From assembly GCA_900547565.1 (NCBI GenBank), contig URHI01000002.1, positions 793 through 64,792 of the forward strand: 64,000 nt of DNA, given 5' to 3'. Positions 18,981-42,661 of this stretch are shown here, in pieces. This DNA is from an uncultured Eubacteriales bacterium (lineage in GTDB: Bacteria; Bacillota; Clostridia; Oscillospirales; CAG-272). Below the pieces are notes generated by a model, which searched no databases, was not told where the DNA came from, and was given only the letters and a program-made list of their open reading frames with translations. A program made the position numbers and the translations under genes. Each line of letters opens with the position of its first letter. Positions within the stretch are counted from its first letter, which is position 1.

Positions 18981-19005
18981 AGCGTTCCTTCCTTGAATCT
19001 GTATT

Positions 19006-19038: not shown

Positions 19039-19050
19039 GGATTCATTCTT

Positions 19051-19079: not shown

Positions 19080-19205
19080 GTATATTTTCAAAATTAATTT
19101 GCAATCCGGGTAAAAATATTGACGCAAATTTGTCAAAAACGCCTTGACAAAAGCTCGAAAATATGATAATCTTTTAAATAGATATTATGCTCGCTTATTT
19201 GCAAA

Positions 19206-19215
19206 GTTTCGAAAC
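19206..19215. promoter_or_regulatory. Candidate LacI auto-operator (perfect 10-bp palindrome)
   Basis: GTTTCGAAAC, with the same half-site as 19006..19038. It sits between a TTGACA box (19145..19150) and the lacI-family ATG at 19228. Confidence 0.4.
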
Positions 19216-19227
19216 ACGGAGGAACGC

Positions 19228-20229: not shown

Positions 20230-20246
20230 ACAAAGGAGATCTCATA

Positions 20247-21899: not shown

Positions 21900-21914
21900 T
21901 AACCGGAGAAAAAT

Positions 21915-23570
21915 ATGAAATTCTGCTTCAAAAATAATAATATGGGCAGTGAGAGCTATGAAGTTCTCTGCCACACCGCGGTTCGTGTCCTCTCTGTGCG
22001 CGGCTCAGAGCTGCTTGACGCACCGGACAGAGATGCCTTCACAGTCACACTGCGCAAGGACGCATCCTTTAAGGACGACCGCTTCACCGTAACACCCGCC
22101 GACGGCGGCGTTGAGCTTATCGGCGCAAACGATCTGGCACTCCACGCGGCTTTTGGAAGATTCATTCTCTCCTCGGGCTTTGACGGTCGCGGCGGCTTCT
22201 CGCCCGTTGACAAAGCCATTGACTTCACGCCCAGATCGCCCTTGCGCGGAATGTACTTTGCAACTCATTTTTACAATTTTTATCATGTAGCACCAATAGA
22301 GAAGGTATATGAGGTAATAGAGGACCTTGCACTGCGCGGATGCAATAACCTGCTCGTATGGTTCGATATGCACCACTTCAATTCCATGCAGGACGAAGGC
22401 GCACAGGTTCTTGTAAAGCGTCTGCGCGCCATGCTCGGATACGCAAATAAGATCGGCATACACGGCTCGCTGACAATGCTGTCAAACGAGGCATTTGCTT
22501 CGTCGCCGGTTGAGTTGCGCGCCGAATGGGAGGCGATCGGCGGCTATCACGCCAAACCCGATGACCACTTTCACCTCGAGATCTGTCCCAGTAAAAAGGG
22601 CGGAATCGAAGAGATCCTTCGCGAACGCCGCGAAATGCTTTCGTATTTCCGCGACCTCGATATTGCCTATATCTGCTACTGGCCCTATGACCAGGGCGGC
22701 TGCACCTGCATGCAATGCCAGCCCTGGGGCTCCAACGGATTTATCAAGCTGTTGCCGCATTTTCAGGAGCTCGTTGCCGAGATGATGCCGAACGCAAAGC
22801 TCATTCTCTCCACATGGTATTTTGACAAATTCATAGACGGGGAATGGGATTCATTTTACCCCAAGCTCACTGACGGCACTATCAGGGACGTTCCCTATAT
22901 CATGTCCTTCTTCTTCAACGGAGAAATGCCGAAATGCGTCGCCAAAGGGGGAGTTCCCAAGGGATATAAATTCATCGACTTCCCCGAGATAAGTATGTAC
23001 TCCTGCAGCCCCTGGGGCGGCTTCGGCGCGAGCGTGCTGTCACGCTTTCTCGACCGTACAAACAAAAAAACTGCCGGGCTCTACTCCGGCGGCTTCCCGT
23101 ATTCCGAGGGTATTTTCGAGGACATAAACAAGTTCATCGAGCTTACATGGTACTCAGGTCTTTACACCGATGCCGCAGATGCCGTCCGTGCGTACGTCCG
23201 CTCGGAATTCTGCGTTGAAGGAGAAGCACTTGATGAGTTAACCGACGCAATTATCCGCACCGAAACGGCTATAGCACGCGGGAAGGTATACGGCGGCGAG
23301 TCCAATCGCTATGAGATCGCAGACACAAGCGACGTTGAGTATGTATATCGGGTCCTCACAAAATACAACGCAAAGCTGCCCGAGGCTATCCGCAGCAGCT
23401 ATCGCTTCAGACTGTTTTATCTCCGTGCCGTCATCGACCGCGAGCTGGTAAGCTGTGATGGGTATCCGCTCCGTTCCGAAATATGCCAGGCGGCCATGCG
23501 TGAGGTAAACGAGATCTACTTTGCCACCGACGCCACAAAGCGTTGGGTCAAGGCTCCCGTGGGAGTATAA
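21915..23570 (+). CDS. Uncharacterised cytoplasmic glycoside-hydrolase-like protein, tandem paralog B (Cys4 motif)
   Basis: 551 aa, collinear with paralog A: LRGMYFATHFYNFYH, EICPSKKGG…YDQGGCTCMQCQPW, GFPYSEGIFEDINK. Confidence 0.55.
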   Translation: MKFCFKNNNMGSESYEVLCHTAVRVLSVRGSELLDAPDRDAFTVTLRKDASFKDDRFTVTPADGGVELIGANDLALHAAFGRFILSSGFDGRGGFSPVDKAIDFTPRSPLRGMYFATHFYNFYHVAPIEKVYEVIEDLALRGCNNLLVWFDMHHFNSMQDEGAQVLVKRLRAMLGYANKIGIHGSLTMLSNEAFASSPVELRAEWEAIGGYHAKPDDHFHLEICPSKKGGIEEILRERREMLSYFRDLDIAYICYWPYDQGGCTCMQCQPWGSNGFIKLLPHFQELVAEMMPNAKLILSTWYFDKFIDGEWDSFYPKLTDGTIRDVPYIMSFFFNGEMPKCVAKGGVPKGYKFIDFPEISMYSCSPWGGFGASVLSRFLDRTNKKTAGLYSGGFPYSEGIFEDINKFIELTWYSGLYTDAADAVRAYVRSEFCVEGEALDELTDAIIRTETAIARGKVYGGESNRYEIADTSDVEYVYRVLTKYNAKLPEAIRSSYRFRLFYLRAVIDRELVSCDGYPLRSEICQAAMREVNEIYFATDATKRWVKAPVGV

Positions 23571-23628
23571 TTCAGTATTTCCCGCGCAAGCGGACAAATA
23601 AATATAACAAAAAAAGAAAGGGAAAAAC

Positions 23629-24708
23629 ATGAAACGCTTTATTTCTTTATTCCTGACGGTATTCGTAGCAATGTCAGTATTCGTCACTGTTACATACGCA
23701 GCCAATGACACTCTCGCTCCCGAGGAGCATGTTGCAAAGGCTATCTACGGTACACCAACTATTGACGGTGAGGCAGACGGCATCTGGGACTACGCACAGA
23801 TCAACTATGTTACCAACGTATTCCAGAACGACGAGATCACACCTCCTTCCACCTGCCAATTCCGTGTAATGTACGACGATACCTACCTTTATTTTCTCGT
23901 TGAAGTAAAAGACGAAACCATGGGTGATGCCGAATGGGAGGCCCTTTCTCTCGGCGGCAATCTTTGGAAGAGAGACGGTGTCTCATTAACGTTTTCACCC
24001 GACAACAACCGCGATGTAACCAACGGCCAGGTTGCTCCCGCATTCTGGTTCATCATCGGCGCATTCGGAAACACGGCAAACTTCAACACTGTTCCGAGCA
24101 ACGTATTCATTTCAGAGGATGAGGGCGCAACAAAGATGTTCGCTATCTCCTACCTTACCGACTATACCACAGGTGTCAATTCCGGGTACACCATTGAGCT
24201 TAAGGTCAACCTCCAGCCCCGCTACGCCGACATAAAAATGCAGGCCGGCACCGAGATCGGGTTCGATATCTACCTCAACGATAACAACAATATCATCATG
24301 TCCGCAAACCGTAACTACGGTCTGACATGGACAGGCGAAGTCAACTCCTATAAAAACAACGCAGTCAAGGGTGTGATCGAGCTGCAGGACAAGGACGTAA
24401 AATTCGAAAACGAGCCTCAGACCACCGCTCCCACAGACACCACCCCCGAAGAACCCACCACTACCGAGCCCATAGATACTACTCCGAAGGATACCACAAC
24501 TGAGGCTCCAAAGGATACCACAACTGAGGCTCCAAAGGATACCACAACGGCAGTGTCCAAAGACACCACAACTGTGGCTACCAAGGACACCACCACTGCG
24601 GATCCCGGCTCCAAGGGAGGATGCGGATCTGTCGTCGCGGCATCTGCACTGATACTCGCTGTTGCTGTCTTCGGCGGAGCTGTAATTTGCGGCAAAAAGG
24701 AGAACTGA
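23629..24708 (+). CDS. Secreted CBM9/DOMON-like carbohydrate-binding protein with a Thr-rich repeat stalk and a C-terminal TM anchor
   Basis: Signal peptide …VTVTYAAND. PTIDGEADGIWDYAQ…FRVMYDDTYLYFLVEVKD is CBM9-like. Five KDTTTxxx repeats. The C-terminus is GGCGSVVAASALILAVAVFGGAVICGKKEN. Confidence 0.6.
   Translation: MKRFISLFLTVFVAMSVFVTVTYAANDTLAPEEHVAKAIYGTPTIDGEADGIWDYAQINYVTNVFQNDEITPPSTCQFRVMYDDTYLYFLVEVKDETMGDAEWEALSLGGNLWKRDGVSLTFSPDNNRDVTNGQVAPAFWFIIGAFGNTANFNTVPSNVFISEDEGATKMFAISYLTDYTTGVNSGYTIELKVNLQPRYADIKMQAGTEIGFDIYLNDNNNIIMSANRNYGLTWTGEVNSYKNNAVKGVIELQDKDVKFENEPQTTAPTDTTPEEPTTTEPIDTTPKDTTTEAPKDTTTEAPKDTTTAVSKDTTTVATKDTTTADPGSKGGCGSVVAASALILAVAVFGGAVICGKKEN
24487..24606 (+). 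repeat. 5 x 24-nt in-frame tandem repeat (KDTTTEAP-type stalk)
   Basis: aaggataccacaactgaggctcca occurs twice exactly, followed by three diverged copies. Confidence 0.85.
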
Positions 24709-24714
24709 TCCGTT

Positions 24715-26388
24715 ATGTCCCTGTTTAAAATTAATTCGGACGAAACATTGTATGTGGTCTACCCCGCAGCAATAACAAGTCATGAATTTGAACAGGCGGA
24801 GACAATAATGAACCGGATACGGGCGCTTGGCGGCGTCCGCCCGGTTCTGCTTTGCGACCGCAACAAATCCCCGGAAAACATACTTCCGGACAACGCTCCG
24901 GCTATTCTCGTCGGTAACACCATCGCCACTGAAAGCCGCCGGGTCCTGTCGGAGCTGACATACGGAGAGGCCGAGCTGCGCCTGGTCGGAAGACGGGTAG
25001 TTGTTGCCGCGCATACCGACGACCTGCTCCCTGCCCTGATATCGTCTCTGGCTGACAGCATGAAGCTCGACGGCGACACTCTCATCATGGATGTTGACAA
25101 GCGCCGCATCAAGGGAACAAGATTTCTGCACAGACTGCCGCTTTGTGACGGTGGGCGGCTGATCGCCTACCGCAAGAGCTGTGATGAATGTGATATGGTG
25201 GTCCTCGCGGATACCGATGAAAATATGTACCGAGCATATCTCAATAAGCTCGGTGGGATGTTCCACATGGAATGGGAGCGCGAGCTGCACGGAAATCTCT
25301 TTGCCGCCTTCTCAGATGACACCGTGGCGATACATGTATATTACACCCCTCACAATCATTTCATACGCGCGCTGATCGAGCCGGTCTCCAATTTATATGT
25401 TCAATGCAACGAGAGCTTCAGTACCGTCACGACCCCGCAGCTTACCTTTATGGGCCGTCGCTTCGGTGATAACTTCCGCTATCTCGGCAAAGATGCCGGG
25501 GCCGGTCAGATGAGCTACTGCATCAGACTTTCCGACGGTAGCTTTTTGGTATACGACGGAGGTCTTGCAACCGACGCTTTTGCCGACGCAATATATGATG
25601 TCATGTGCGACCAGGCTCCAGATCCCCAAAAGCTCGTGATCGCCGCCTGGGTAATCACACATTCCCACGCAGACCATATCGGCGGTTTTCTCAAATTCTC
25701 CGAGAAATATTCCGATAAGGTCAAGCTTGAGCGGCTTATGTTCAACTTTCCATCCATGCAGGACGCCGAGGCGTTCCGTGAGGCCTGGAACATTCGCCTG
25801 ACTAAGGAGGCACTCTACAACCGCTTCCCCGATGCAATTTTCTCCAAGCTGCACAGCGGCGATGTTGTCAAGGTCCGCGACGCCGAGATCGAAGTGCTTT
25901 ACACACACGAGGATTTCGTGATTCAGTACATTTCAATGCTGAATACTCATATTTATAACAACTGCTCGCTTGTCTCACGAATGACGCTTGGGGGAACAAA
26001 ATTCATGTTCATGGCAGATTCTCAGGAGGACGCCAACGCTATCATAGTGGCAATGTACGGCGATTATCTCAAAAGCGATATGCTGCAGGTCTGCCACCAC
26101 GGTGGGTGCGGGGGAACTGTTCCGCTTTATGAAGCCATCGACCCCGAAGTTGCAATTTTCAGCACTACCGACGCCCTTCTCCCCGAATATCTGTCTGTCA
26201 TTTACAACTATCATTTGGTATATGAACAGCACGTCCGCCAGATATTCAACTCAGCTGAAAACACCATAACCCTTCCCCTGCCCTACACTCCGGGCGAGTG
26301 CAACATTCCTCCATTCGAAGGCACTATCGTTGAAAAGCTTTCAAGCACAAAGGGATGCGTTATCAAAACCGCCAATAAGGAATCATAA
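24715..26388 (+). CDS. Cytoplasmic (no signal peptide) N-terminal domain plus MBL-fold metallo-hydrolase (paralog 3 of 3)
   Basis: ITHSHADHIGG, FMADSQED, VCHHGGCGG. Close paralog of 15690..17465. Confidence 0.8.
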   Translation: MSLFKINSDETLYVVYPAAITSHEFEQAETIMNRIRALGGVRPVLLCDRNKSPENILPDNAPAILVGNTIATESRRVLSELTYGEAELRLVGRRVVVAAHTDDLLPALISSLADSMKLDGDTLIMDVDKRRIKGTRFLHRLPLCDGGRLIAYRKSCDECDMVVLADTDENMYRAYLNKLGGMFHMEWERELHGNLFAAFSDDTVAIHVYYTPHNHFIRALIEPVSNLYVQCNESFSTVTTPQLTFMGRRFGDNFRYLGKDAGAGQMSYCIRLSDGSFLVYDGGLATDAFADAIYDVMCDQAPDPQKLVIAAWVITHSHADHIGGFLKFSEKYSDKVKLERLMFNFPSMQDAEAFREAWNIRLTKEALYNRFPDAIFSKLHSGDVVKVRDAEIEVLYTHEDFVIQYISMLNTHIYNNCSLVSRMTLGGTKFMFMADSQEDANAIIVAMYGDYLKSDMLQVCHHGGCGGTVPLYEAIDPEVAIFSTTDALLPEYLSVIYNYHLVYEQHVRQIFNSAENTITLPLPYTPGECNIPPFEGTIVEKLSSTKGCVIKTANKES

Positions 26389-29790: not shown

Positions 29791-30657
29791 ATGCACAACA
29801 TACAAGCCAAAACCATCCTCTCCGCAAAAAACGGCATAAACATTTACCGAGGTTGCACTCACGGGTGCATCTACTGCGACAGTCGGTCTGACTGTTACCA
29901 ATTTGATCACCGTTTTGAGGATATTGCGGTAAAGCAAAATGCCCCCGAACTGTTGGAGGACGCTCTGCGAAGAAAGCGCAAGCCCTGTATGGTCGGCACT
30001 GGCTCGATGTGCGACCCGTATATGCATTGTGAGGAAACGCTCGGATACACGCGCAAATGTCTTGAGATCATCGACAAGTACAATTGCGGTGCGACGGTCA
30101 TTACGAAATCGGACCGCATTCTGCGAGACATTGATTTGTTGGTGCAGATCAACCGTCATTCCAAAGCCGTCGTGCAGATCACGCTGACAACCTATGATGA
30201 GGCACTTTGCCGTATCATCGAGCCGAATGTGTGTACCACCAAGCGCCGATACGAGGTGCTGAAAGAGTGTCAGAAGCGCGGGATTCCCACCGTCGTTTGG
30301 CTCTGCCCCATTCTTCCGTACATCAACGACACCGAAGAAAATCTGCTCGGGATCCTTGATTACTGCTTTGATGCGGGCGTGGTCGGCATCATCAATTTCG
30401 GCTTTGGTGTGACGCTTCGGAGCGGAAGCCGGGAGTATTTGTATCAGAATCTGGACGGGCATTTTCCGGGAATTAAGGAACGATATATCCGGAGTTTCGG
30501 GGATTCTTACGAATGCCCGTCAGACAATTCCGCAAATCTGTGGAGCATCTTCAAAAGGGAATGTCGGTCGCACGGCGTGATGTCGGACCCGAATGAAATA
30601 TTTGCGTATCTGAACGAATACCCGGTTCAGAATCAGCAGCTCAGCCTGTTTGACTGA
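29791..30657 (+). CDS. Radical SAM protein, SplB/'DNA repair photolyase' (COG1533)-like
   Basis: 288 aa. The N-terminal YRGCTHGCIYCDSR contains a C-x3-C-x2-C motif. Its length and layout match the small SPL-related family. Confidence 0.75.
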   Translation: MHNIQAKTILSAKNGINIYRGCTHGCIYCDSRSDCYQFDHRFEDIAVKQNAPELLEDALRRKRKPCMVGTGSMCDPYMHCEETLGYTRKCLEIIDKYNCGATVITKSDRILRDIDLLVQINRHSKAVVQITLTTYDEALCRIIEPNVCTTKRRYEVLKECQKRGIPTVVWLCPILPYINDTEENLLGILDYCFDAGVVGIINFGFGVTLRSGSREYLYQNLDGHFPGIKERYIRSFGDSYECPSDNSANLWSIFKRECRSHGVMSDPNEIFAYLNEYPVQNQQLSLFD

Positions 30658-32202: not shown

Positions 32203-32937
32203 ATGTCAATGTGGAATCCGTGGCATGGATGCCATCGGTACAGCGAAGGCTGTAAATATTGCTATATCCATAAGGGCGACGCTAAGCGCGGTGTCAACAC
32301 AGAAGAGATCGTAAAAACCGATAATTTTTACGCCCCCGTTGCCAAAACAAAAAAGGGCGAATACAAAATGAAGGGCGGGCAGACTTGTTATCTGTGCTTC
32401 TCTTCCGACTTTCTGCTGGAAGAAGCAGACAAATGGCGTGCGGAATGCTGGCAGATGATGCGAGAGCGGCAGGATATTAATTTTCTGTTTCTGACCAAAC
32501 GTATCGAGCGTTTTATGTCAGTTGTTCCTGATGATTGGGGAGACGGATATGACAACGTAACGGTATGTTGCACCGTGGAGAATCAGGACAGAGCCGATTT
32601 TCGTCTGCCCCTATTCAGCCAAATGCCTATCAAACATAAGTGCATTACGGCGCAGCCGCTTATCACGGATCTTGAGATCGAGACGTATCTTGACGGTATT
32701 GAGCTTGTCGTGGTCGGTGGAGAATCAGACCGGGATGCAAGAGTGCTTGATTATGCTTGGGTGCTCAATATCCGGGACCAGTGTGTGCGAAAGAATGTTT
32801 CGTTTGAGTTTCGTCAACTTGGCACGCACTTTCTCAAAGACGGTAAAATGTATACTGTAAATCCGTTCAACCTTTGCAAGCAGGCAAAGGAAGCGGGAAT
32901 CAATTATCAGCGGGTGTTATCATCAAAAAGTGAGTGA
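32203..32937 (+). CDS. DUF5131 / phage Gp37-Gp68 family protein (three-Cys motif)
   Basis: MSMWNPWHGCHRYSEGCKYCY is the family-defining N-terminus. 244 aa. Confidence 0.8.
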   Translation: MSMWNPWHGCHRYSEGCKYCYIHKGDAKRGVNTEEIVKTDNFYAPVAKTKKGEYKMKGGQTCYLCFSSDFLLEEADKWRAECWQMMRERQDINFLFLTKRIERFMSVVPDDWGDGYDNVTVCCTVENQDRADFRLPLFSQMPIKHKCITAQPLITDLEIETYLDGIELVVVGGESDRDARVLDYAWVLNIRDQCVRKNVSFEFRQLGTHFLKDGKMYTVNPFNLCKQAKEAGINYQRVLSSKSE

Positions 32938-32989: not shown

Positions 32990-34468
32990 CTATTTCTGAT
33001 AATCTCTTATTAAACGGACCGTTTTGTCCCGCATTTTTCTGTTACATAAGAATTTAATAAATCGTACCACCCAGAACACAGGTAAAAGCAACGGAGTATA
33101 AGTAAGGATATGATACCGCTCTTTCATAAGTCTGTACGGCGGGAATAATCGACTTAAAACATATTTTATTTTCCCCTGCTTCCGTATACCGTTGCTAACA
33201 CTGTTCTCAAATGAGCCGTAAGCTCCGCTTATATAAATGTAATGTAATATGTCCTTATCGACCGAGCCGGGATCATCGAATAAAACAGAAACCGTATCGG
33301 AAAGAAATTTGAAAAACTCATATATGCCCGCGTCTTTCATCAGGGCAACGATATATTTACTGTTATATTCAGGTTTGCTTTCAAAGTATCTTTTTATCAG
33401 ATAAAAATCCGCAAAGCTTCTCAGCCCGGCTCCCCCGTTATTATAATGTTTAAAAAAGTGAGCTGTATAATATGTGTAGAAATCCTCATCAGACATATGA
33501 TATGCGTATTCCTTGTTTTCGTCCCTTACGGCTCTTTCCCAGATATCCTTAAAAAATGAATTGCTTGCGTCCGTAAAAAGCGCTTTGTGCATCTCAAAAT
33601 TATATACCGGCTCCTTATAGTACGCATTATGTACCGATGATGGTTTTACGCTGTAATTACGCCCGGTCATTATACCGTTTACTTTTGCTTCATCTTTCTT
33701 TTGAATCAAAATGTCAATATCAGCGGCTTCACGAATAAAAGGGCTGTACAGAGCTTTAATTATAATGCCCTTGAGCGGCATATATGGTATATGCTGCTTT
33801 TCAAATTCTCCGGTTACCGTATCAAATTCCGAGCAAAGCAATAATTCGCGCTTTCTTGCATGATCGTTGTATCTCTGCCATTCCGCATATATTTCTTTCG
33901 GGATGTCGGATTTGTTGAGTACGGGAAAAACGGTAGCCGCAATGCGGTGATGCTTTGCTATTTGAAAAAGCTTTCTGTAATCAAGTGTGTCCGGCGCCTT
34001 CTGAGTGCGGGAGTGATCCAATACAGCCTTGACAAGAGAGATGAGGTACAAAAATTCGGAATAAACGGGCGGATCGTGTTGTTTTTCGGTAACGAGATTT
34101 CTTTTATTGCTTTTACGAGAGAAGTGTCTCATTGCCCTTTTATCCGTACAGGCATAGTATATGCCGTTTTTATATATGCCTTCTGCAACGGCAATGATCT
34201 GTTCCTTACGGACAAATTCGCCGGTTGTACAGTTATCACCACGTATATAATAACCGTCTTTATTTACACAAATAATACGGTGAAGCACAAGCGTTCCGTC
34301 TGCTCTGCGGAATAAAACAATGTCTTTTTTCTTAAGAGCAGCTACAACCGGAACCAAGCGTACCGAATCTTCATTTTCATTAAGAAGCGGCATCATGCTT
34401 GTGCCTTGTATACTGTGAACAGCAAAGCCGTTTTCTTTTATTACCTCATCGATCGATAAAATGCTCAT
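32990..34468 (-). CDS. Fusion protein: S24/S26-type peptidase domain plus uncharacterised nucleotidyltransferase (NTP_transf_5-like)
   Basis: The N-terminus HSIQGTSMMPLL…DIVLFRR…LVLHRII…IRGDNC is a signal-peptidase/LexA-fold Ser protease. The remaining ~370 aa are PF14907-like (…EAADIDILIQKKD…). Its start overlaps the pqqD-like stop (ATGA). Confidence 0.65.
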   Translation of the reverse strand: MSILSIDEVIKENGFAVHSIQGTSMMPLLNENEDSVRLVPVVAALKKKDIVLFRRADGTLVLHRIICVNKDGYYIRGDNCTTGEFVRKEQIIAVAEGIYKNGIYYACTDKRAMRHFSRKSNKRNLVTEKQHDPPVYSEFLYLISLVKAVLDHSRTQKAPDTLDYRKLFQIAKHHRIAATVFPVLNKSDIPKEIYAEWQRYNDHARKRELLLCSEFDTVTGEFEKQHIPYMPLKGIIIKALYSPFIREAADIDILIQKKDEAKVNGIMTGRNYSVKPSSVHNAYYKEPVYNFEMHKALFTDASNSFFKDIWERAVRDENKEYAYHMSDEDFYTYYTAHFFKHYNNGGAGLRSFADFYLIKRYFESKPEYNSKYIVALMKDAGIYEFFKFLSDTVSVLFDDPGSVDKDILHYIYISGAYGSFENSVSNGIRKQGKIKYVLSRLFPPYRLMKERYHILTYTPLLLPVFWVVRFIKFLCNRKMRDKTVRLIRDYQK

Positions 34469-34731
34469 TCTGACATCAATCCGGCAGATCGAAATTTTTC
34501 AAGGACCGACAGTACGGCATGCCGCGCCTGCTCGGGTGTTACTTCATATTTTTCAAGGAGCCTGTCAATCAAACTTTCTTCGGTTGTTTCCGACTGAAGA
34601 AGCTCCGCTATAAAAGCCGCCGTGCTGTTCATTTTGATCATTCCGGAAAACATTTGTCCGGCTTCTCCGGCGGCAACAATAATATGTTCATCGCCGTTTT
34701 TTGTAATAATGACACCGTCTTTAAACTTCAT
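34465..34731 (-). CDS. PqqD-family protein (RiPP recognition element, RRE)
   Basis: 88 aa. …MNSTAAFIAELLQSETTEESLIDRLLEKYEVTPEQARHAVLSVLEKFRSAGL… is a winged-helix PqqD pattern. 4-nt overlaps on both sides. Confidence 0.75.
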   Translation of the reverse strand: MKFKDGVIITKNGDEHIIVAAGEAGQMFSGMIKMNSTAAFIAELLQSETTEESLIDRLLEKYEVTPEQARHAVLSVLEKFRSAGLMSE

Positions 34732-35459
34732 ATTTTTTCTCCCGTCATGGTTTCATAGGATAGCCGTGCCGCCTCGGTTGATATATTGCAGCCAAGTGAA
34801 TATAACGGCACTTTATTTATCAATCTGATAATCGTTTCCACGGCTTTTTTACATTGCGCGGTTCCTTCCGGCTTCAAGGTCTGAGGATACGCCCATCTGA
34901 AGGCTTCGGAGGAGGTAACCATCTCGATGCTGTTATCACGGCTCTGGTGCAGAAAACAGATGCCGGCAATCTCAGCACTACCGTTATAACTCAGATGTTC
35001 TTTCCCGTCAAAAGGACTGCCGTATGCATACGGTATATCTCCCATAAATTTGATAAAAGGTTTATCTCCGTTCAGTATTTTGACCTTTTTGCCGAGAAGC
35101 TTGCACCATAAATCCGCATGCGTGCTTTTTCCCGTACCCGACGGCGCGGTAAACAGATATGCCTTTTCATCGCAGACAACGGCGCATGAATGGAATAGCA
35201 CAATACCGTAATCGGCGGCACGAGAGCAAAATTTCCTTAAAAACGCAAGAGATTCAAGATAATAATCCGGATATATTGCGTCGGATTTTTCTTTTTCGTA
35301 ATCTATATCACCGGTAGTGATGTCAATTTCGATATCAGTTGGGCAGGTGATCAGATAATCTGACAGAAATTTTGTCAGATTAGCATACTTATGAAACACG
35401 GACACCTTCAATCCGGCAAAGCAACAGTCGGTAATGTATTTTTGCATATCAATCCTCAT
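34728..35459 (-). CDS. HPr-kinase-related P-loop protein (putative peptide Ser/Thr kinase)
   Basis: VLFHSCAVVCDEKAYLFTAPSGTGKSTHADLW is an HprK C-terminal-domain-like P-loop. An alternative start at ATG 35447 has a better SD (GAGGA). Confidence 0.6.
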   Translation of the reverse strand: MRIDMQKYITDCCFAGLKVSVFHKYANLTKFLSDYLITCPTDIEIDITTGDIDYEKEKSDAIYPDYYLESLAFLRKFCSRAADYGIVLFHSCAVVCDEKAYLFTAPSGTGKSTHADLWCKLLGKKVKILNGDKPFIKFMGDIPYAYGSPFDGKEHLSYNGSAEIAGICFLHQSRDNSIEMVTSSEAFRWAYPQTLKPEGTAQCKKAVETIIRLINKVPLYSLGCNISTEAARLSYETMTGEKI

Positions 35460-35465: not shown

Positions 35466-35494
35466 AAACAGGGCGGGAATCTCCCGCCCTGTTT
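35466..35494 (-). promoter_or_regulatory. 13-bp GC-rich hairpin between the structural genes and the enzyme genes (attenuating or stabilising stem)
   Basis: aaacagggcggga-atc-tcccgccctgttt starts at the lipoprotein stop codon. It has no long U-tract on the coding strand, so it is unlikely to be a full terminator. Confidence 0.5.
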
Positions 35495-35904
35495 TAAAAA
35501 GGTATCTTCGGTAAATATACTTCGCTATTAACAGTTGTTGTTTCCGCCGGAACGGTGGTTTCCGCAGTCACGGGTGTTGTTTCCGGTGGAACTGTGGTCT
35601 CCGCAGTCACGGGTGTTGTTTCCGGTGGAACGGTGGCTTCTTCTGTCACAGCTGTTGTTTCCGCCGGAACGGTGGTCTCCGGTTGAGAAATTTCCCCGGT
35701 TGTTGACGTTGAATCAAAAGGTATTTTCGGCAATTCAACTTCACTGTTATCCGCGGTATATTCCGATACATCCGATGTCTCCTGCTGATCGCGTATTGAA
35801 TCATCGGATATATCATTGCCGGACTTGGAGCACGATGACACAAAAAGTATTGAAACGGCAACTGTTATTGCAAAAACGGTTATTTTAAATGGAGAATTTT
35901 TCAT
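35494..35904 (-). CDS. Repeat-containing lipoprotein that ends in a duplicated NSEV[EY]LPKIPF motif
   Basis: ATG 35904 (MKNSPFKITVFAITVAVSILFVSSCSK, with a lipobox). ETT(V/P)P-rich 13-aa repeats. The motif NSEVELPKIPF occurs at residues ~53-63 and NSEVYLPKIPF forms the exact C-terminus. Confidence 0.7.
   Translation of the reverse strand: MKNSPFKITVFAITVAVSILFVSSCSKSGNDISDDSIRDQQETSDVSEYTADNSEVELPKIPFDSTSTTGEISQPETTVPAETTAVTEEATVPPETTPVTAETTVPPETTPVTAETTVPAETTTVNSEVYLPKIPF
35533..35680 (-). repeat. 39-nt in-frame tandem repeats (two full copies plus two partial copies)
   Basis: ccgcagtcacgggtgttgtttccggtggaac[t/g]gtgg… at 35562..35600 and 35601..35639, with diverged flanking copies. Confidence 0.85.
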
Positions 35905-36053
35905 CAAAATTCATCAAAAACGCCGCTAAAACCGCCCAAACCGCTTGTGTAAATATCGGTAGAAACAATTTCAAACTCGATAATTTCTATCTCGGGTTGT
36001 ATAAATTGTTCTTTCTTGACGATATTATTATGTTCATTGTTCTTGTTTACCAT
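35904..36053 (-). CDS. Untracked 49-codon ORF: candidate RiPP-type precursor peptide
   Basis: Hand translation gives MVNKNNEHNNIVKKEQFIQPEIEIIEFEIVSTDIYTSGLGGFSGVFDEF. It starts 13 nt after the stop of the 943-aa gene. Its TGA overlaps the ATG of the lipoprotein gene (TGATG). It contains F-x2-P-x-I-x3-E-x5-T-x, resembling the Y-x2-P-x-L-x3-G-x5-T-x leader motif bound by PqqD-type RREs. The SD is weak. Confidence 0.4.
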   Translation of the reverse strand: MVNKNNEHNNIVKKEQFIQPEIEIIEFEIVSTDIYTSGLGGFSGVFDEF

Positions 36054-36066
36054 ATTATACCCTGCC

Positions 36067-38898
36067 TTATTTGTTGTTGAATTCTACGGCAGACACACCG
36101 TAATTATATGCAGCTCTTGCAAGCGCTTTCATAGTGGCATTTTCGCTGTTCTGCATCGCATATACATAAGAGTTAACACTATAGGTGACAATGGCACCTG
36201 CAACATCATCTGTGTAAATCGTTGCAGTGTAAACTGTATCAAATGCCGTTGCGTATATGCCATCGGTCATTACAGTATATTGGTTCTCACCGGCCGGGGT
36301 AAACGAAGTATAATATACTTCAGCCCCGTCGCCCGCTTTGATACCCACCTTGACATTGGCTGTATCGGCGGCGGTGAATCTGAATATCAACTTATTTACG
36401 CTATCAAACCAAAGGCTCATACCGGTGAATTTCACCGCGCCGTAATTGTTTGCAACCGTTTTGGCTGTAGACATAAGTTCCGAAAAATCGCTTCCGGTGA
36501 TGCCGTCGGATACAAGATCACCCGTGTTATGTCCAATGTAGGTCTGTGCCGCGCCGCCGTAAACGAGCAGGTCTTTGATCAGTTTAACCATAGCGGTGTA
36601 TTTTTCCTCGGAATATCCGAGTTCTTCCGCCGTCATGCCGCTCAGAGTTTCAAGATATGTTTTTACCGTATAAGTTTTGATGTTCAATACGGTGCCGCCT
36701 TTGATGATCTCAGCTGTTATCGTATCGCCGATACACTGCGGTGCAACACCCGTATAAACGAATTTATATGTAGAACCTTCGACCGGCGTTCCCGATACGG
36801 TCTTGCTGACGCCGTTCATAGTAAAGCGCATTTCCGCATCCTCATAGCCTTCGGGCAGTGTTGCGTAGTAATTGACTGTAATGTCTGTGCCGAGAGATAC
36901 GCTGACTTCGGAGAATGCTCCCGCAACGGATTCCAGTATAACGACATCGGAAAACTCCGTGATCTCAAACACAACATATGTGTTGCCGCTTCCGTCATAG
37001 ATCATGGAGAATGTTTTTTCGCCGTTTTGTGCTTCTTCGGAACTTTCATGATAGAAGATCTCCAGTGTTCCGTCCTGCTTTTCATGAATGATCTTATACG
37101 GGTTCAAGGAGCCGACAAACAGGGTAACCGTCATCGGAGAACCGTCGAAGTCCTCGTCCGAAAGCGGGAAGGATGTGTCGGTTCCGACAACGTTCATGGT
37201 GGGAGAAAGCGAAACTCTCATACTTCCGCCTTCGTTCTTGCTTTCGTCGGGAGAATATCCCTTGACAGTAACCGCAACATTCACATTCAGTTTTACATCG
37301 GTTGAGCCGGTAATGCGGCTGACATAACTGTCAATCGCACTTTGCTTCATTGCGGAGGTTACGCCGGTAACGGTGGTGCCTGCTTCTGCTTCCGCTCCGC
37401 TTTCAGCGTATTCGGTATAATCGGTCGTTGATTTTCCGTTGATCAGCTGATAACTGACATCGTTTACCGTACCGATGTCAACAAGGCGGTAAAGATATAC
37501 TTTACCCACAGTGCTATATGACTCATTGGAGGAATAGTCGCACATGGTGAATATTTTATCGCCGATTACTTCACCGTTATCTCTGCGGTAGGAGCGGAAG
37601 AAGTAATCCGGATCATATGCGGAGTTTATTTTCACGCTTCCGTCTTCGTTAAGACCGATATAATATCCGTATTTAGCCGAGCCGCTGCTGTATGTATCCC
37701 AATAAAATGAGCCTTCATAGTCGGGAGCAAGCTCCGCCTGAAGCTTATTGAATGAAGATATGATCCCGTATCTTATTCCGTTTCCCCATTCGGTGCAACC
37801 GGCGGCAAATCTCAGTTCAAAGTTTGCACATTTCTTAGCGCTTTGAAATGCAATCTTGCCGTCCGTCACGGTCACCGGTGCAGCCGGAAAATCACAACCG
37901 TACTGATTGGTGCCGACTGCCATGGCATAGCTGTCGGAAACAAGAATATATTCGCCGCCCGCGACGATCTCATCTTCCGAGGTGACAAGGGAATATACGG
38001 ATATATTTCTTCCGCAACTGTCGCACTTTTTGTCGCCGTCTGCGTCGTCGCATCCGAGTTTCGCCAGCGTATCTGCGCTTGTGTACGTTACACCAAATTC
38101 GTCTGCATAATAGGAAGTACAATCCGGGCAGAAGTAGTAGGCGTTTGTTCCGGTTTTGTTGCAGGAAGGTGACACCTCTGCATGGTATTCCATATTCGCA
38201 TGGTCACAGCATTCATACGTATAGATGCGATACGCGGTAACGAAGGTGTCGGTCGAAGTGAAATCTTCGTAGATTGGGCAGGTTGTAAAATACGGATCAT
38301 CACCGTTTTCCGGAATACGCAATGCGATGTCTGCATAATAACCGGAAATGTATGGATTTCCGCTTTCGTCCGTATAGAGGTCCCATTCCTTTGCGCCGCT
38401 TTCATCGGTAACTGTCAGTCCAAGCGACTCACCACGTTTCTTTTCCTCGTTATATACGACGGATTCACCTATATAGGCGTCCTCGCCTGAATAATTGATC
38501 CCCGGCAATTTCAGTTTTACATAATACGTACTGTCTGTCTGGTTGCGGACGACCGGCGCTACCTTGTCTGCCGGTACACGCAGATAATCATAAAAATCGC
38601 CTGCTTCGGCAGAACCGCCGGTCAGTCTCTCCGCAGGAATCGCCGAGAAGCCATACAGAGCCTCATTATATTCATTGCCCATGACATAAATATGCTCGAT
38701 TCCTTCTGAATCGGTATACGACGCGCTGATCAGCTCGTTTCTTTCACCCGGCCAGTATGCCCCTATCGTTTTTGAAAAACGCCTGTACACGGTTCCCGCT
38801 TCGGGTTCTGTTGCCGACGCGCCGAGCGGTAATAAAAGCAGCAACATTACGGTTGCCAGCAGCATTGAGATGACGCGCCTTGAAAACTTGTTTTTCAT
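36067..38898 (-). CDS. 943-aa secreted protein of unknown function
   Basis: Signal peptide …LLLLPLGASATEPEAG and a GGAGG SD. Contains a Cys-knuckle module (SPSCNKTGTNAYYFCPDC…CDDADGDKKCDSCG). I recognised no catalytic motif. Confidence 0.8.
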   Translation of the reverse strand: MKNKFSRRVISMLLATVMLLLLLPLGASATEPEAGTVYRRFSKTIGAYWPGERNELISASYTDSEGIEHIYVMGNEYNEALYGFSAIPAERLTGGSAEAGDFYDYLRVPADKVAPVVRNQTDSTYYVKLKLPGINYSGEDAYIGESVVYNEEKKRGESLGLTVTDESGAKEWDLYTDESGNPYISGYYADIALRIPENGDDPYFTTCPIYEDFTSTDTFVTAYRIYTYECCDHANMEYHAEVSPSCNKTGTNAYYFCPDCTSYYADEFGVTYTSADTLAKLGCDDADGDKKCDSCGRNISVYSLVTSEDEIVAGGEYILVSDSYAMAVGTNQYGCDFPAAPVTVTDGKIAFQSAKKCANFELRFAAGCTEWGNGIRYGIISSFNKLQAELAPDYEGSFYWDTYSSGSAKYGYYIGLNEDGSVKINSAYDPDYFFRSYRRDNGEVIGDKIFTMCDYSSNESYSTVGKVYLYRLVDIGTVNDVSYQLINGKSTTDYTEYAESGAEAEAGTTVTGVTSAMKQSAIDSYVSRITGSTDVKLNVNVAVTVKGYSPDESKNEGGSMRVSLSPTMNVVGTDTSFPLSDEDFDGSPMTVTLFVGSLNPYKIIHEKQDGTLEIFYHESSEEAQNGEKTFSMIYDGSGNTYVVFEITEFSDVVILESVAGAFSEVSVSLGTDITVNYYATLPEGYEDAEMRFTMNGVSKTVSGTPVEGSTYKFVYTGVAPQCIGDTITAEIIKGGTVLNIKTYTVKTYLETLSGMTAEELGYSEEKYTAMVKLIKDLLVYGGAAQTYIGHNTGDLVSDGITGSDFSELMSTAKTVANNYGAVKFTGMSLWFDSVNKLIFRFTAADTANVKVGIKAGDGAEVYYTSFTPAGENQYTVMTDGIYATAFDTVYTATIYTDDVAGAIVTYSVNSYVYAMQNSENATMKALARAAYNYGVSAVEFNNK

Positions 38899-39054: not shown

Positions 39055-39090
39055 TTATAAAAAAGCGCCCGGATCTTCATCCGGACGCGC
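39055..39090 (-). terminator. Intrinsic terminator after the response-regulator gene
   Basis: Reverse strand: gcgtccggat-gaag-atccgggcgc (one mismatch), followed by TTTTTT. Confidence 0.6.
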
Positions 39091-39107: not shown

Positions 39108-39731
39108 TCAAAAACCGTTGACGATCAGTTTTTTGCTGACCACACCCGCCGCAAGCTTTGTCTTTGAAGTGAACCCCGTTTTGGACAGCATACTGCTGAT
39201 ATGTGCTTTGACACCGTCGGTTGTTATATTGAGCTTTTCTGCCATTTGTTTATATGTCATACCCTCCACAAGCAATCGCAGTACGCGTATCTCGGCTTCG
39301 GAAAACGCATAACTGGTCGTATTTCCGAGCTTTACCTCCGGCGCTTTGTCCGGAAAGACCGATTCGCCTGCCATCGTCCGGTCGATCACGGTCATAAGCT
39401 CCTCGCAGCTGACATCCTTGAACCAGATGCTGTCTGCGCCGACTTGCTTCGCACGATCAATATAGCTGTAATCAAGCATGGAGGTCACAATAATTATCTT
39501 GATACCGGGATAATGTGCTTTTATCCTTTTCGCGGCTTCAAAGCCGCTCTCGTCGTTCTCCGTGCAGATATCCATCAGTATCAGATCAATAGAATGTACG
39601 GAGCAGCTCATTTCCGCAAGCCCTGCGTTGGCTATTGATAAAGCAAGCGAATACTTATTGCTTTGATTGATATAGTGTTCCATGCTCTCACGCGCCAGGC
39701 GCTGATCTTCCACGATCATAACTTTTATCAT
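39108..39731 (-). CDS. NarL/LuxR-family response regulator (REC plus HTH_LuxR)
   Basis: MIKVMIVEDQRL…DLILMDI… is the REC domain. The C-terminal …FSEAEIRVLRLLVEGMTYKQMAEKLNITTDGVKAHISSMLSK is the LuxR HTH. Confidence 0.9.
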   Translation of the reverse strand: MIKVMIVEDQRLARESMEHYINQSNKYSLALSIANAGLAEMSCSVHSIDLILMDICTENDESGFEAAKRIKAHYPGIKIIIVTSMLDYSYIDRAKQVGADSIWFKDVSCEELMTVIDRTMAGESVFPDKAPEVKLGNTTSYAFSEAEIRVLRLLVEGMTYKQMAEKLNITTDGVKAHISSMLSKTGFTSKTKLAAGVVSKKLIVNGF

Positions 39732-40699
39732 TGCAATTCCTCCGTGATCTCGGGTACCATAACCGTTAGTTCAAAGCGCGGGTAACTTGTGACTGTCATG
39801 CTACCGCCCGCTTTTTCGATACGCGACCGCAGAGTGGAAAGTCCACCACCCTCTACGATCTCACCGTCCGGCGCATTGCCGTTATTGCGGATGATCGCCG
39901 AGCAGAAACGGTCACAGCTCTTAAGCTTCACATATAGCTCGGTACTTTTCGCATGGCGCGCCGCATTTGTCACACATTCACGCATTGCGGTTATCAAATG
40001 ATAAGCCGAAGCCTTGTTTTGCGGCAGGTTGCCTTCCAAAATGATTCTGATCCCGATCTCATTCGCGGCGTCCTTAAGCTGTGTAAGCGCGTCACGGTCA
40101 TCGTCGCTTTCGCTGTCGTGACGAAGCAGATGAACCGCATGTTTCCATGCCGTCAAGTCCAGTTCATCGGTCGGATAATGTCCGGTCAGCAGCCTCCTTG
40201 CCGCAATTACACTTCGGCCGATGTCGTCGTGGATGCGCATTTTCATATTCAATACTTCTTCTTCGCGGATCAGCGCCGCTACGTTGGCGGAAAGCCGGCG
40301 TAAGCGTTCCCCGACTTGTTGCAGCTGACGGTTCTTTTGCTGCAATTCCGTCTTACGACGATACAACTCAGTTACATCTGATGCTGTAATCTCAGTATAA
40401 ATGTTTTTGTACTTATCGGTGATGGTTTTTTCATTGAATTGCCAGATATCGCCGCTGTCCATAACAAACAGCGTTCCTTCACGAACGGCATGCTGCGGTG
40501 TGCCGTGCATAACCTCGCGCAATTCATCAACCGCTTGCAGATCTCTCCCGGTCAACTCAAAAACAAGCCGGTACATTTGACGGTTACAAAGCGTTACTGC
40601 GCCGTTCTGATTGAAAAAGCAGATCCCGCTCGGAAGGTTATCAAAAGCTTGCTTAGTCATGCGTTTCAGTGAAGGTTGAATTATCCGAAGCGATCTCAT
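39728..40699 (-). CDS. Cytoplasmic PAS-containing sensor histidine kinase (HisKA_3 type)
   Basis: No TM segment. The PAS-like N-terminus is followed by a coiled coil. H-box MRIHDDIGRS. The HATPase_c region is …ECVTNAARHA…NNGNAP…GGGLSTLRSRIEKAGG. Confidence 0.85.
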   Translation of the reverse strand: MRSLRIIQPSLKRMTKQAFDNLPSGICFFNQNGAVTLCNRQMYRLVFELTGRDLQAVDELREVMHGTPQHAVREGTLFVMDSGDIWQFNEKTITDKYKNIYTEITASDVTELYRRKTELQQKNRQLQQVGERLRRLSANVAALIREEEVLNMKMRIHDDIGRSVIAARRLLTGHYPTDELDLTAWKHAVHLLRHDSESDDDRDALTQLKDAANEIGIRIILEGNLPQNKASAYHLITAMRECVTNAARHAKSTELYVKLKSCDRFCSAIIRNNGNAPDGEIVEGGGLSTLRSRIEKAGGSMTVTSYPRFELTVMVPEITEELQ

Positions 40700-42345
40700 T
40701 CCGATTCACCTCCGATATACGCAGTGATCTGCCATTCGCCGTCCTCATCCTGTGAAACCTTCATAAAGTCGGACGAAAGCCGGTTGACATCAGCATCAGC
40801 GTCCGTGTTCACCGTCATCTGAAGTCCCGCACGCTTTCTTGTAATCAAAACGATGATTGCCTGCATTTTATCAAGTGCGCACTCGACGATATTTTCAAAC
40901 ACATCATACAGCTTCATTACACATTCAGCCGGGACAGCTCCATCTATATCCGAGTGAAAGCCGCAGGAAATTCCGTACAACTCCATGTTATCAAGCGATT
41001 CCCTGAATGTCAGGGCGATCTCTCCGGCATCAAGCAGCGGTTCCTTATCCGCAAGAAGTATCAGGTTGCTTTTTCGTTTGAGATATGCGCCGATCACAAC
41101 CATTTTTCCGAGCAGCCTGCGCTTTTCGTCCTCACTTTCCGAAGCGTCAAACCGGTCTGTCAACTCAGTTAAAAGTTTGATCTGCCCCTCTGTCTGCTTC
41201 TGGATCAGGTCGTACAGTCTGTCCTGCTCGGCAACATGTGCTTCTTTGACCTTCAGGGCATATTCCTCGCGGATCAGATCGTTCTCGTCTGCAAGATATT
41301 CGTTTGTGTCGTGAAGCTCATCAAGAACCGCCAGCAGCTCCGAGACATTGTCTGTCCAGAGCACGTGCCCGCCGGAAATTTCCTTTCCGGATAACCTTAG
41401 CCCACCGTCGAGCAGAACACTTCCGTTTTCCGCCTGACGCAGAGTGTCCGGTGTAACATCCACGGCTACGGCAGATGACAATCGGGGGGTGTAATCGTTA
41501 TCGGTTACCCATACACCTGTTGAACATGCGGTCAGAAGTTCTGTGTAGTGTGTGTTTGACTGAATCAAACCACAGGCGATGAAGCTCTCGAAAATGATGA
41601 TGAACAGCACACAGTACGTTATGGTGATGTCGGCGGCATAATACAATACGGCCGGTATCTGCATCGCATATAATGCCGAATACACAATTGCTATCGCCAT
41701 CGGAATAACCGGCATCCACAGATACCGTTTACTCCTCGGGAGCCTGCATTTTACGAGCATGATGGCAAATGCCGCAAGCGTGTTCAGAACGATGTATCCG
41801 AAAACAATATAATAACCGAACCCGTAGCTGTACTGATCGTCCGTCCATACTGTCGAATTTGCGGGAAATTCAAAAACATGCATATGCAGATCATTTGTCA
41901 TTACCATTGCAAACAGTAAAACAGCCGGAACAAGTAACAGCAATGTTCGCTTAGGAAGCCGATAGAATTCCGGCTTTCCGAGTGAAAGTGCCGCAAATAC
42001 AGCGAGGACCGGGATGAACAAAAGCGGCAGATAGTACAAATACCACATATAGCGTACAACATTCAGGTTCGACTCAATATTATATTTCAAGGTTCTGAAT
42101 AATAGCCATAAAATCATTAAGACAGCGACAGAAGACAGGTATTTCCGCACCTCCACCTGAATGATGCGAGCACGCAAAGATATATACCATGCAGAAAACA
42201 GCGATAAATAAATGAAACTTCTTATGTATCCGCATACAGCGGGAGTGTATGCACAGATGTGCGGCAACCGGCACAGATATGCTACGATCACCAACAATGA
42301 AACTATGATAATATTGCGGGCAATATATTTATTCACCTTTATCAT
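40696..42345 (-). CDS. Polytopic membrane sensor-like protein with a degenerate kinase-like C-terminal domain
   Basis: Start moved to ATG 42345 (MIKVNKY…), 5 nt after GGAGGG. It has ~7-8 TM helices, then a coiled coil and an ATPase-lid-like tail (…VFENIVECALDKM…) with no clear H-box. Its stop overlaps the kinase start. Confidence 0.65.
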   Translation of the reverse strand: MIKVNKYIARNIIIVSLLVIVAYLCRLPHICAYTPAVCGYIRSFIYLSLFSAWYISLRARIIQVEVRKYLSSVAVLMILWLLFRTLKYNIESNLNVVRYMWYLYYLPLLFIPVLAVFAALSLGKPEFYRLPKRTLLLLVPAVLLFAMVMTNDLHMHVFEFPANSTVWTDDQYSYGFGYYIVFGYIVLNTLAAFAIMLVKCRLPRSKRYLWMPVIPMAIAIVYSALYAMQIPAVLYYAADITITYCVLFIIIFESFIACGLIQSNTHYTELLTACSTGVWVTDNDYTPRLSSAVAVDVTPDTLRQAENGSVLLDGGLRLSGKEISGGHVLWTDNVSELLAVLDELHDTNEYLADENDLIREEYALKVKEAHVAEQDRLYDLIQKQTEGQIKLLTELTDRFDASESEDEKRRLLGKMVVIGAYLKRKSNLILLADKEPLLDAGEIALTFRESLDNMELYGISCGFHSDIDGAVPAECVMKLYDVFENIVECALDKMQAIIVLITRKRAGLQMTVNTDADADVNRLSSDFMKVSQDEDGEWQITAYIGGESE

Positions 42346-42661
42346 ACATGCCCTCCGTAATAGCCGCAAAAATAAACTTTATTTTACCTCAAAGCAAAAA
42401 AACTTGCTTGAAAAGCATTTTTGCGAGACCGTCATTGCCGCAGGTGCGCAGAGTGCACACAGGGCGAAGCCCAAAGACTTGCGCATGAAGTCTTTCTGCG
42501 GGTATTATATCATAAAATCAGCATTATTTCAAGTTAAGGGCTTTAATTATAGGCAAACATAACACATCAGAACAAAAAATCAGGATCATGCCTCCGCACT
42601 CCGGCTGATTTTCCCTGATGTCGTACAGCCGTTCTGCCGTCACTGTGGCAGAATGCAGGGT

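Follow-up and report, generated by a model that had tools for sequence, protein, structure and literature searches.

A short conserved gene beside a kinase-RRE cassette in a gut Clostridial genome, and its probable role as precursor of a linear phosphopeptide

Does the open reading frame (ORF) of 49 codons at 35904-36053 on the minus strand (stop codon 35904-35906) encode a peptide and, if so, what would the enzymes encoded beside it do to that peptide? The ORF lies in a 64,000-nt stretch of contig URHI01000002.1, from an uncultured Eubacteriales bacterium; the whole stretch was analysed and is called the window here. A preliminary description had proposed that it is a small unannotated gene and that its product bears a lasso-type [Y/F]xxPx[I/L] leader for an adjacent PqqD-type RRE (the recognition element of RiPPs, peptides made on the ribosome and modified after translation), and a non-lasso core that would be a kinase target. 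The first proposal is supported by the peptide family, by covariation of leader and RRE and by the published system of linear polyphosphorylated peptides (LPP); the second is supported, by analogy, by the family, the covariation and the published LPP logic. The ORF is a real, conserved coding gene, and we put at about 0.8 the probability that its product is an LppA-like precursor from which a linear, lasso-related RiPP of the LPP type is made.

The 49-codon gene and its family

Translation of the reverse strand (ATG at 36053, TGA at 35906-35904) gives the 49-aa product MVNKNNEHNNIVKKEQFIQPEIEIIEFEIVSTDIYTSGLGGFSGVFDEF, and confirmed the ORF, its coordinates, a gap of 13 nt and a TGATG overlap as they had first been claimed. 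The gap separates the ATG of the peptide gene from the stop codon of the upstream gene for a 943-aa protein (36069-36067). In TGATG the TGA of the peptide and the ATG of the downstream gene have the A in common, and the overlap is preserved in all close relatives. A purine-rich stretch resembling a Shine-Dalgarno sequence, AAGG..AGGG (36060-36068, minus strand, 6-14 nt 5' of the ATG, identified by sequence reading), is retained, or strengthened (AAGGAAGGG), in all close relatives.

The preliminary description had suggested looking for stop codons in relatives, and five alleles contain none. They include one in-frame deletion of 9 nt, the central block is unaltered, and the changes are concentrated in the N-terminal extension and the tail; the leader block K14-E28 has zero nucleotide changes in four alleles. 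Searched against 5.8 billion proteins, the peptide returned four clusters, from gut metagenomes including pig gut, and the arrangement in all four is large protein, peptide, lipoprotein. Since changes among the close alleles are too few, the ratio of non-synonymous to synonymous change (pN/pS) was replaced by a codon-position analysis of distant members.

The comparison set comprised 80 loci fetched via homologues of the adjacent 243-aa protein, a predicted kinase. Small ORFs adjoining the homologous genes have a leader in common with the window peptide. Iterated searches with hidden Markov models (HMMs), a check also proposed beforehand for short ORFs beside homologous cassettes, yielded 41 family ORFs in about 25 loci; with a single exception they share the strand of the kinase gene. 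We then made an HMM of 30 distant peptides, leaving out the window clade, and compared it with the 964 window ORFs of at least 20 aa; the 49-aa ORF was the sole significant match (E=4.8e-5, next best 0.47), its residues K14-E28 aligning onto the family consensus KEKYeePEMEVIEFE. Across 29 distant members, pairwise comparison of a 20-codon conserved block gave mean identities of 0.64, 0.73 and 0.39 at the first, second and third codon positions, and half of the identical residues use different codons; we read this pattern as a clear sign of protein coding.

A profile of 31 peptides matched at least 5,433 clusters in public data at E<=0.01 (clusters at 90% identity). None of the 120 best of these has a name or a Pfam domain, and the 31 family peptides themselves have no match in Pfam-A or NCBIfam. 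Literature searches for PF14907, PF27840 and peptide motif strings gave nothing relevant, and the family motif was not found in print among the papers searched. The family is spread over orders of Clostridia, Synergistaceae and Streptococcus, and cultured carriers include Anaerotaenia torta DSM 100431, Coprococcus catus and Streptococcus merionis DSM 19192. A precursor family of this size for which no detecting model exists implies that thousands of genes are missing from annotations.

An alternative is that the frame, lying in an intergenic spacer, is open by chance and that no translation takes place. It is short, the pN/pS of the close alleles gives no clear signal, and the motif alone is not significant: the six-frame translation contains the relaxed pattern [YF]xxPx[LI]xxx[GE]xxxxxTx once, compared with 0.27 times expected from shuffles (maximum 2), and the core pattern [YFW]xxPx[LIVMFA] occurs 171 times in the six-frame translation of the window. 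As stand-alone evidence the leader motif was rejected as not above chance. The ORF rises above chance because of its family membership and its cassette context, not because of the motif alone. Conservation at the protein level across the taxa named above with a third-position identity of only 0.39, the 5,433 clusters, the conserved Shine-Dalgarno-like stretch and stop-start overlap, and the covariation with the RRE described below all count against a chance frame, which is effectively refuted.

Family peptides are present in 16 of 26 complete cassettes but in only 5 of 54 partial ones (Fisher p=1.8e-6), so that the association of peptide and cassette is strong, not universal. In a metagenome-assembled genome (MAG) of Synergistaceae, four tandem precursor genes with differing tails lie directly upstream of the kinase gene (L032, 715-1336), and one 65-aa protein (P0125) has two leader copies within a single ORF. 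Five further loci (L094-L096, L099-L100) have family peptides with no kinase/RRE cassette within 7 kb. One such orphan is directly behind a 1,337-aa surface protein, and another (L099) is beside an acyltransferase, a response regulator, an ATP-binding cassette (ABC) ATPase and a histidine kinase.

The cassette and the pairing of leader and RRE

The peptide gene belongs to a tightly packed operon on the minus strand, in the order 943-aa protein, peptide, lipoprotein, kinase, RRE and 492-aa fusion protein. The 243-aa product of 34728-35459 is a P-loop protein resembling the kinases ScmC and HprK, and would correspond to LppK of the LPP system. Its family is placed in PF27840 (ScmC) by precomputed Pfam assignment, and the NCBIfam models ScmC and HprK_rel_A match all 31 aligned family members, weakly. 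The AlphaFold2 model of the window protein has a predicted local distance difference test score (pLDDT) of 96, and its top Foldseek matches are phosphoenolpyruvate carboxykinase (PEPCK) and HPr kinase/phosphorylase (HprK/P).

The next gene (34465-34731) encodes an 88-aa PqqD-type RRE (Pfam PqqD, E=2.7e-16), LppB/B1-like. The profile of its family matches the lasso B1 proteins TbiB1 (2.9e-9) and TfuB1 (3.5e-8), and also LppB (9x8z) and PbaB1 (9x90). Single-sequence phmmer searches of the PDB with the RRE and the peptide, and a search with the kinase profile, gave no meaningful matches; the identity of the RRE needed a profile search and that of the kinase a structure search.

The fusion gene (32990-34468) overlaps the RRE gene by 4 nt. 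The N-terminus of its product (34139-34468) is a domain resembling signal peptidase I (SPase I) of the SipW/SEC11 type, with Ser, His and Asp, and would be the counterpart of LppS. The best NCBIfam match is TIGR02228, archaeal-type SPase I, at E=3.4e-5, which is below the cut-off of that model. The residues G22-S24-M25-P27, H63-R64 and G77-D78-N79 do not vary among 28 homologues, and the family profile matches SPase I and SEC11A/C in the PDB, His replacing the bacterial catalytic Lys. The second part of the fusion (33305-33985) is an NTP_transf_5 nucleotidyltransferase domain (PF14907, E=1.7e-40), LppN-like. Fusions of peptidase and nucleotidyltransferase of about 500 aa also occur in L015, L024, L048 and L092. 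Most loci have the two as separate genes with an ABC exporter gene between them.

Kinase, RRE and peptidase/nucleotidyltransferase were present in 80, 71 and 76 of the 80 loci, respectively. The canonical gene order is kinase-RRE-SPase-ABC exporter-nucleotidyltransferase, with no cyclase, and an exporter was detected in 13 of the 26 complete related loci. Nine loci from Christensenellaceae MAGs (L017, L019, L025, L034, L041, L077, L080, L082 and L084) have the kinase-PqqD pair followed by a DUF1846 protein and GroEL. In these nine no peptidase or nucleotidyltransferase follows the pair and no family peptide was found; they may represent a different use of the kinase-RRE pair.

The enzymes have a published counterpart. 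The LPP pathway was described in Bacilli, with the cluster lppA-K-B-S-D-N of Paenibacillus alginolyticus as reference (Popov et al., Nat Commun May 2026; PMC13381572). Its core genes encode the precursor LppA, the HprK-like kinase LppK, the discrete RRE LppB, the SipW-like peptidase LppS, the MsbA-like exporter LppD and the NTP transferase LppN. The consensus of the LppA leader is YxxPxVLxHQxIxFETxxS, of which Y-16 and P-13 are required for RRE binding; in LppB, D70 forms a hydrogen bond with the Tyr hydroxyl and the Pro kink is held in place by N33 (PMC13381572). LppK adds several phosphates to core Ser3, and LppS (Ser-His-Asp) cuts after T-1 solely if the leader is presented by LppB. No activity of LppN was seen in the heterologous host (PMC13381572). 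RRE binding, polyphosphorylation of Ser and RRE-dependent cleavage have been demonstrated in the Bacilli system alone (PMC13381572).

The LppB residues were mapped onto the columns of the RRE family via a PDB alignment. The equivalent of N33, N35 in the window, is invariant in 72 of 72 RREs. The column of D70, the residue that binds the leader Tyr hydroxyl, is occupied by A72 in the window, where the leader has Phe. Among loci with both RRE and peptide, all 16 with a Tyr leader have Asp in this column, whereas the four with a Phe leader all have another residue: Ala in the window, Asn in L013, Ser in L071 and Ser in L087 (Fisher p=2e-4). Nearest-neighbour RREs point to at least three independent losses of Asp. 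Ten further loci with an RRE lacking Asp, as well as L092, gave no F-type or other peptide. The covariation is what would be expected if the family peptides bind their RREs as LppA binds LppB and, as independent evidence, it leads us to regard the 49-aa product as a probable ligand of the 88-aa protein. The change from Tyr/Asp to Phe/non-Asp is a natural evolutionary replicate of the published mutagenesis on leader choice by the RRE.

Processing of the peptide and relation to known pathways

Family alignment divides the window peptide into four parts. A 13-aa N-terminal extension is a feature of this variant. It is followed by the leader block K14-E28 (KEQFIQPEIEIIEFE, 35970-36014, minus strand) with the predicted RRE-binding motif FxxPxI (F17, P20, I22), by a second conserved block D33-G38 (DIYTSG, 35940-35957), the predicted region of leader cleavage, and by a variable acidic Gly/Phe-rich tail L39-F49 (LGGFSGVFDEF, 35907-35939), predicted to form the main part of the mature peptide. 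The preliminary description gave the positions of F17, P20, I22, E26 and T32 correctly and saw in them a position-for-position lasso motif. The family keeps only the first three residues; the column of E26 is variable, and T32 lies within a 2-residue insertion of the window clade (FE-IVST-D), where a close relative has V.

The second block of the family reads D-[VI]-[IMY]-T-x-S-G, its Ser being near-invariant, and corresponds to D33-G38. A core of 16 aa, IYTSGLGGFSGVFDEF, as first put forward, has to be given up, as its boundary cuts through this block and conservation extends to S37-G38. S37 is kept in all four close variants and S44 is not. The tails are hypervariable across the family, many being only 7-12 aa; that nearest to the window's is in L014 from Anaerotaenia torta (SGFGLSVFDG...). 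A signal-peptidase-like enzyme is expected to favour a small residue at P1 and a hydrophobic one at P3. The sequence I34-Y35-T36|S37 fits this expectation and parallels F-E-T| of LppA. By analogy, the junction of leader and core more likely lies at or just before S37, which would give a core of about 11-13 aa, and S37 is the likeliest phospho-acceptor. The alternative, suggested by a weak hhalign alignment of the two precursor families, is cleavage after F27-E28-I29 with S31 as acceptor.

The coding gene, the enzyme families and the co-evolution of leader and RRE are shown by the sequence comparisons; for the chemistry, the sites and the product we infer the following from the LPP pathway. The leader (about residues 14-28, FxxPxIEII) would bind the 88-aa RRE as a beta-strand. 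The RRE would present the peptide to the ScmC/HprK-fold kinase, and the Ser just after the leader (S37 most likely, S31 as the alternative) would be phosphorylated, probably several times. It would also present the peptide to the SPase-I-like domain of the 492-aa protein, which would remove the leader, most likely at T36|S37 (P3 = I34, P1 = T36). Further decoration of the phosphate may be the task of the fused NTP_transf_5 domain. The predicted product is a short acidic phosphopeptide, about (pS)GLGGFSGVFDEF.

Four of the five LPP enzyme types have a match in the window, the exporter being the exception. In this respect the preliminary description had foreseen a mechanism for which experiments in the Bacilli system now exist. 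The kinase is matched at the level of fold and superfamily only (PEPCK, HprK/P, ScmC, HprK_rel_A). The spacing from Ser to His in the SPase-like domain is 39, as between S29 and H68 of LppS, and the nucleotidyltransferase is in PF14907, the same Pfam family as in Supplementary Data 2 of the LPP paper. The Asn for the leader Pro kink is kept in the RRE (N35), neither system has a cyclase, and both have a short precursor with an N-terminal [Y]xxPx[V/I] leader, a conserved block containing Ser and a hypervariable tail.

There are also differences. The family consensus is MKEKYETPEMEIVEFETEDIITTSG, compared with YxxPxVLxHQxIxFETxxS for LppA, and the window has only FxxPxI in common with it, with Phe in place of the leader Tyr and Ala in place of the Tyr-binding Asp of the RRE. 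Peptidase and transferase are fused in the window, and the MsbA-like exporter is missing. The window has as extra partners a surface protein with a conserved C-terminal domain and an anchored Thr/Pro-rich protein, its host is a gut Clostridium, not a Bacillus or Paenibacillus, and the cassette lies outside a capsule locus.

In the LPP paper the Clostridial signal peptidase I (SpI) clusters 20, 9 and 4 of its sequence similarity network (SSN) are labelled 'RRE others' and have no assigned precursor (PMC13381572). In a small sample compared without a tree, the SPase-like domain of the window scored 70, 64 and 49 bits against these three clusters and 45, 45 and 37 against LPP cluster 1. The window RRE, in a similarly small sample and again with no tree, gave E=1e-14 with a protein labelled 'RRE others', compared with E=2.6e-4 and E=0.005 for two LPP RREs. 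We file the window, on this sequence comparison, as a sister branch of the published LPP clade, most likely working as LPP does, and not a member, because the LppA profile misses the peptide, the exporter is absent, and protease and RRE are nearer to the Clostridial SpI/RRE pairs. Gut and rumen Clostridia, some Synergistaceae and streptococci would then carry a sister system of LPP.

Several observations weigh against an LPP-type precursor. An HMM of 11 published LppA sequences gave no match to the window ORF at E<=10, and the relation between Bacilli LppA and the Clostridial peptide family is weak (hhalign E=0.011). That alignment puts the cut after F-x-T, at F27-E28-I29 in the window, and leaves the assignment of the sites uncertain. 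The RRE profile is no nearer to LppB than to the lasso B1 proteins. No exporter was matched in the window by phmmer with three LppD-like exporters from related loci, and Pfam searches of its large ORFs detected no ABC ATPase. No LppN activity was obtained even in the reference system (PMC13381572). Some family peptides are far from any cassette, and L092, whose kinase is 54% identical to that of the window, has no adjacent peptide that could be found. The pN/pS of the five close alleles, 0.3-2.5 on 1-13 changes per pair, is uninformative.

The relation to lasso peptides raises the question of whether the peptide is itself a lasso precursor, with cyclase and B2 peptidase supplied from another part of the genome and only tailoring left to the local kinase and nucleotidyltransferase, as in the clusters for paeninodin (PadeK) and pseudomycoidin (PsmK/PsmN). 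Of the features of lasso biosynthetic gene clusters the window has the B1-type RRE and the FxxPxI leader, and the phosphorylated lasso systems likewise have a B1-type RRE and a [W/Y]xxPx[L/I]E[VI][LI] leader. In those Firmicutes clusters an HprK-like kinase puts one or more phosphates on Ser and NTP_transf_5 decorates the phosphoserine. More than half of the LPP hosts have lasso machinery elsewhere (PMC13381572). The paeninodin and pseudomycoidin systems differ, however, in having a macrolactam cyclase and the B2 cysteine peptidase and in phosphorylating the C-terminal Ser of a threaded peptide, whereas the window has neither enzyme, has a serine SPase-like enzyme instead, and its peptide ends in Phe. 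No Asn-synthetase-like cyclase was found by Pfam and NCBIfam in the operon or in the ten largest other ORFs of the window, and the same models gave no match to the transglutaminase-like peptidase (B2) in the cassette or among the large ORFs. The canonical related loci also have no cyclase, and a dedicated SPase-like peptidase replaces B2.

The peptide sequences argue in the same direction. Many family tails, at 7-12 aa, are too short for a lasso, and whichever plausible start is taken, Asp/Glu is missing from positions 7-9 of the window tail. A core beginning at I34 has neither the position-1 residue nor the Asp/Glu at 7-9 of a lasso ring, as the preliminary description held, and counting from S37 as the first residue, the acidic ones come at positions 11-12 by sequence reading. 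We regard a true lasso precursor as highly unlikely, and a linear product of LPP type as the better account.

The SynChlorMet systems (TIGR04249 ScmC, TIGR04248 ScmD) and the HPr-rel-A systems (TIGR04352 HprK_rel_A, TIGR04353 PqqD_rel_X) also pair a P-loop protein with a PqqD-family chaperone, as in the window, and the best NCBIfam and Pfam names for the window kinase are ScmC/HprK-related. The scores are far below the curated cut-offs (ScmC 17.6 bits with a cut-off of 125, ScmD 18.9 with a cut-off of 100). SynChlorMet cassettes contain radical SAM/SPASM enzymes whereas the window operon has no radical SAM gene, and a precursor of the present type has not been described for SynChlorMet.

Surface-protein partners and neighbouring genes

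The first operon gene (36067-38898, minus strand) encodes the 943-aa protein, which is predicted to be secreted from its N-terminal signal peptide and has zero matches in Pfam or NCBIfam. BLASTP and jackhmmer searches showed that its C-terminal domain of about 285 aa (36070-36978) has homologues in ten distant loci (L027, L060, L061, L062, L066, L070, L079, L087, L090 and L094), where they form the extreme C-terminus of large secreted proteins. The domain was found in 2,521 representative proteins at E<=1e-3 and in 1,472 at E<=1e-10, nearly always C-terminal, behind leucine-rich repeat (LRR), Big_3, Flg_new or MBG modules; Pfam contains no model for it.

The third gene (35494-35904) encodes a 136-aa lipoprotein with the lipobox VSSC. 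It contains a Thr/Pro/Glu-rich tandem repeat (39 nt x3.7, at 35536-35681) and has a family-wide tail twice, as NSEVELPKIPF internally and as NSEVYLPKIPF at the C-terminus. A membrane-anchored low-complexity protein is encoded directly before the kinase gene in 13 related loci. At L027, L029, L060, L062, L066, L079 and L090 the C-terminal tail of the anchored protein, (I)ELPx[IV]P, resembles the tail of the peptide at the same locus (permutation p=0.0017, n=7). In L090, for example, the anchored protein ends in APIELPFVPAF and the peptide in GELPFVPAE, and in L062 the pair is IELPVIPIG and IELPVIPID. The tail of the window peptide is of an alternative Gly/Phe/Asp type, unlike that of the lipoprotein.

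Coupling to a surface protein and a lipoprotein suggests, at the level of sequence, a role in the cell envelope. It also raises the possibility that the modified peptide, together with the lipoprotein tail, is a ligand, anchor or maturation factor for the co-transcribed surface protein and not a free product, a reading with which LPP-type chemistry is compatible. All ten domain-bearing proteins tallied are followed by a family peptide on the same strand, eight of them within <=148 nt; the tally covers eight kinase-homologue loci, with L070 and L094 outside it. The spacing in the window is 13 nt. In L094, which was reached via the peptide alone and has no cassette within 7 kb, the stop of the domain protein and the start of the peptide overlap. 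The matched tails and the missing window exporter also point this way. This association is purely genomic, however, the domain protein precedes only 10 of 30 peptides, the lipoprotein and peptide tails of the window differ, and the AlphaFold2 model of the domain from a single sequence (pLDDT 48) provides no structure. We consider a partner of this kind unlikely.

A fuller version would be a three-part surface module, made up of a giant secreted protein with the 285-aa domain, an RRE-dependent phosphopeptide and an anchored Thr/Pro-rich stalk that copies the peptide tail, the modified tails being ligands or anchors for the domain. This too is a tentative and rather improbable proposal. If true, it would give LPP-type chemistry its first biological role and gut Firmicutes a new way to display or regulate surface proteins. 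The coupling to the domain and to the tail-matched anchored proteins in any case offers a first testable lead to the purpose of the phosphopeptide.

Directly upstream of the operon is a three-gene two-component unit (39108-42369, minus strand) encoding a kinase with a seven-transmembrane (7TM) domain, a PAS/HATPase kinase and a LuxR-type regulator. The product of the 49-codon gene could be a signalling pro-peptide sensed by this system, whose genes are adjacent and on the same strand; the orphan peptide of L099 is also beside a regulator, ABC and kinase set. Between the unit and the operon, however, lies a strong terminator-like hairpin (39065-39088, minus strand; 10 bp, 7 GC, with a T-run; from a consensus scan only), and searches of the 80 related loci at E<1e-3 turned up no homologue of the window regulator or kinases. 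Since the two-component system is not conserved in related loci, a dedicated sensor is unlikely, and we give signalling very little weight beside an LPP-type product.

The same type of scan gave a promoter-like site, ATGAAA-18-TATAAT (36103-36132, minus strand), which lies within the 943-aa gene, at its 3' end, and some 50 nt upstream of the peptide ATG. The number of promoter-like sites in the region is not above that in shuffles.

Just downstream of the cassette, on the opposite strand, are two genes (29791-30657 and 32203-32937) whose products have Cys-rich N-termini, CTHGCIYC (typical of radical SAM proteins) and HGCHRYSEGCKYCY. From strand and spacing only, they were judged unrelated to the cassette. 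A run of paralogous genes encoding proteins of about 550-590 aa occupies 8738-26388. It includes a gene for a solute-binding-like protein (17484-19136) and two genes at 20247-23570 with no Pfam match. A BspA-type LRR protein is encoded at 10719-12350. Three of the paralogues, at 8738-10522, 15690-17465 and 24715-26388, have metallo-beta-lactamase-fold domains.

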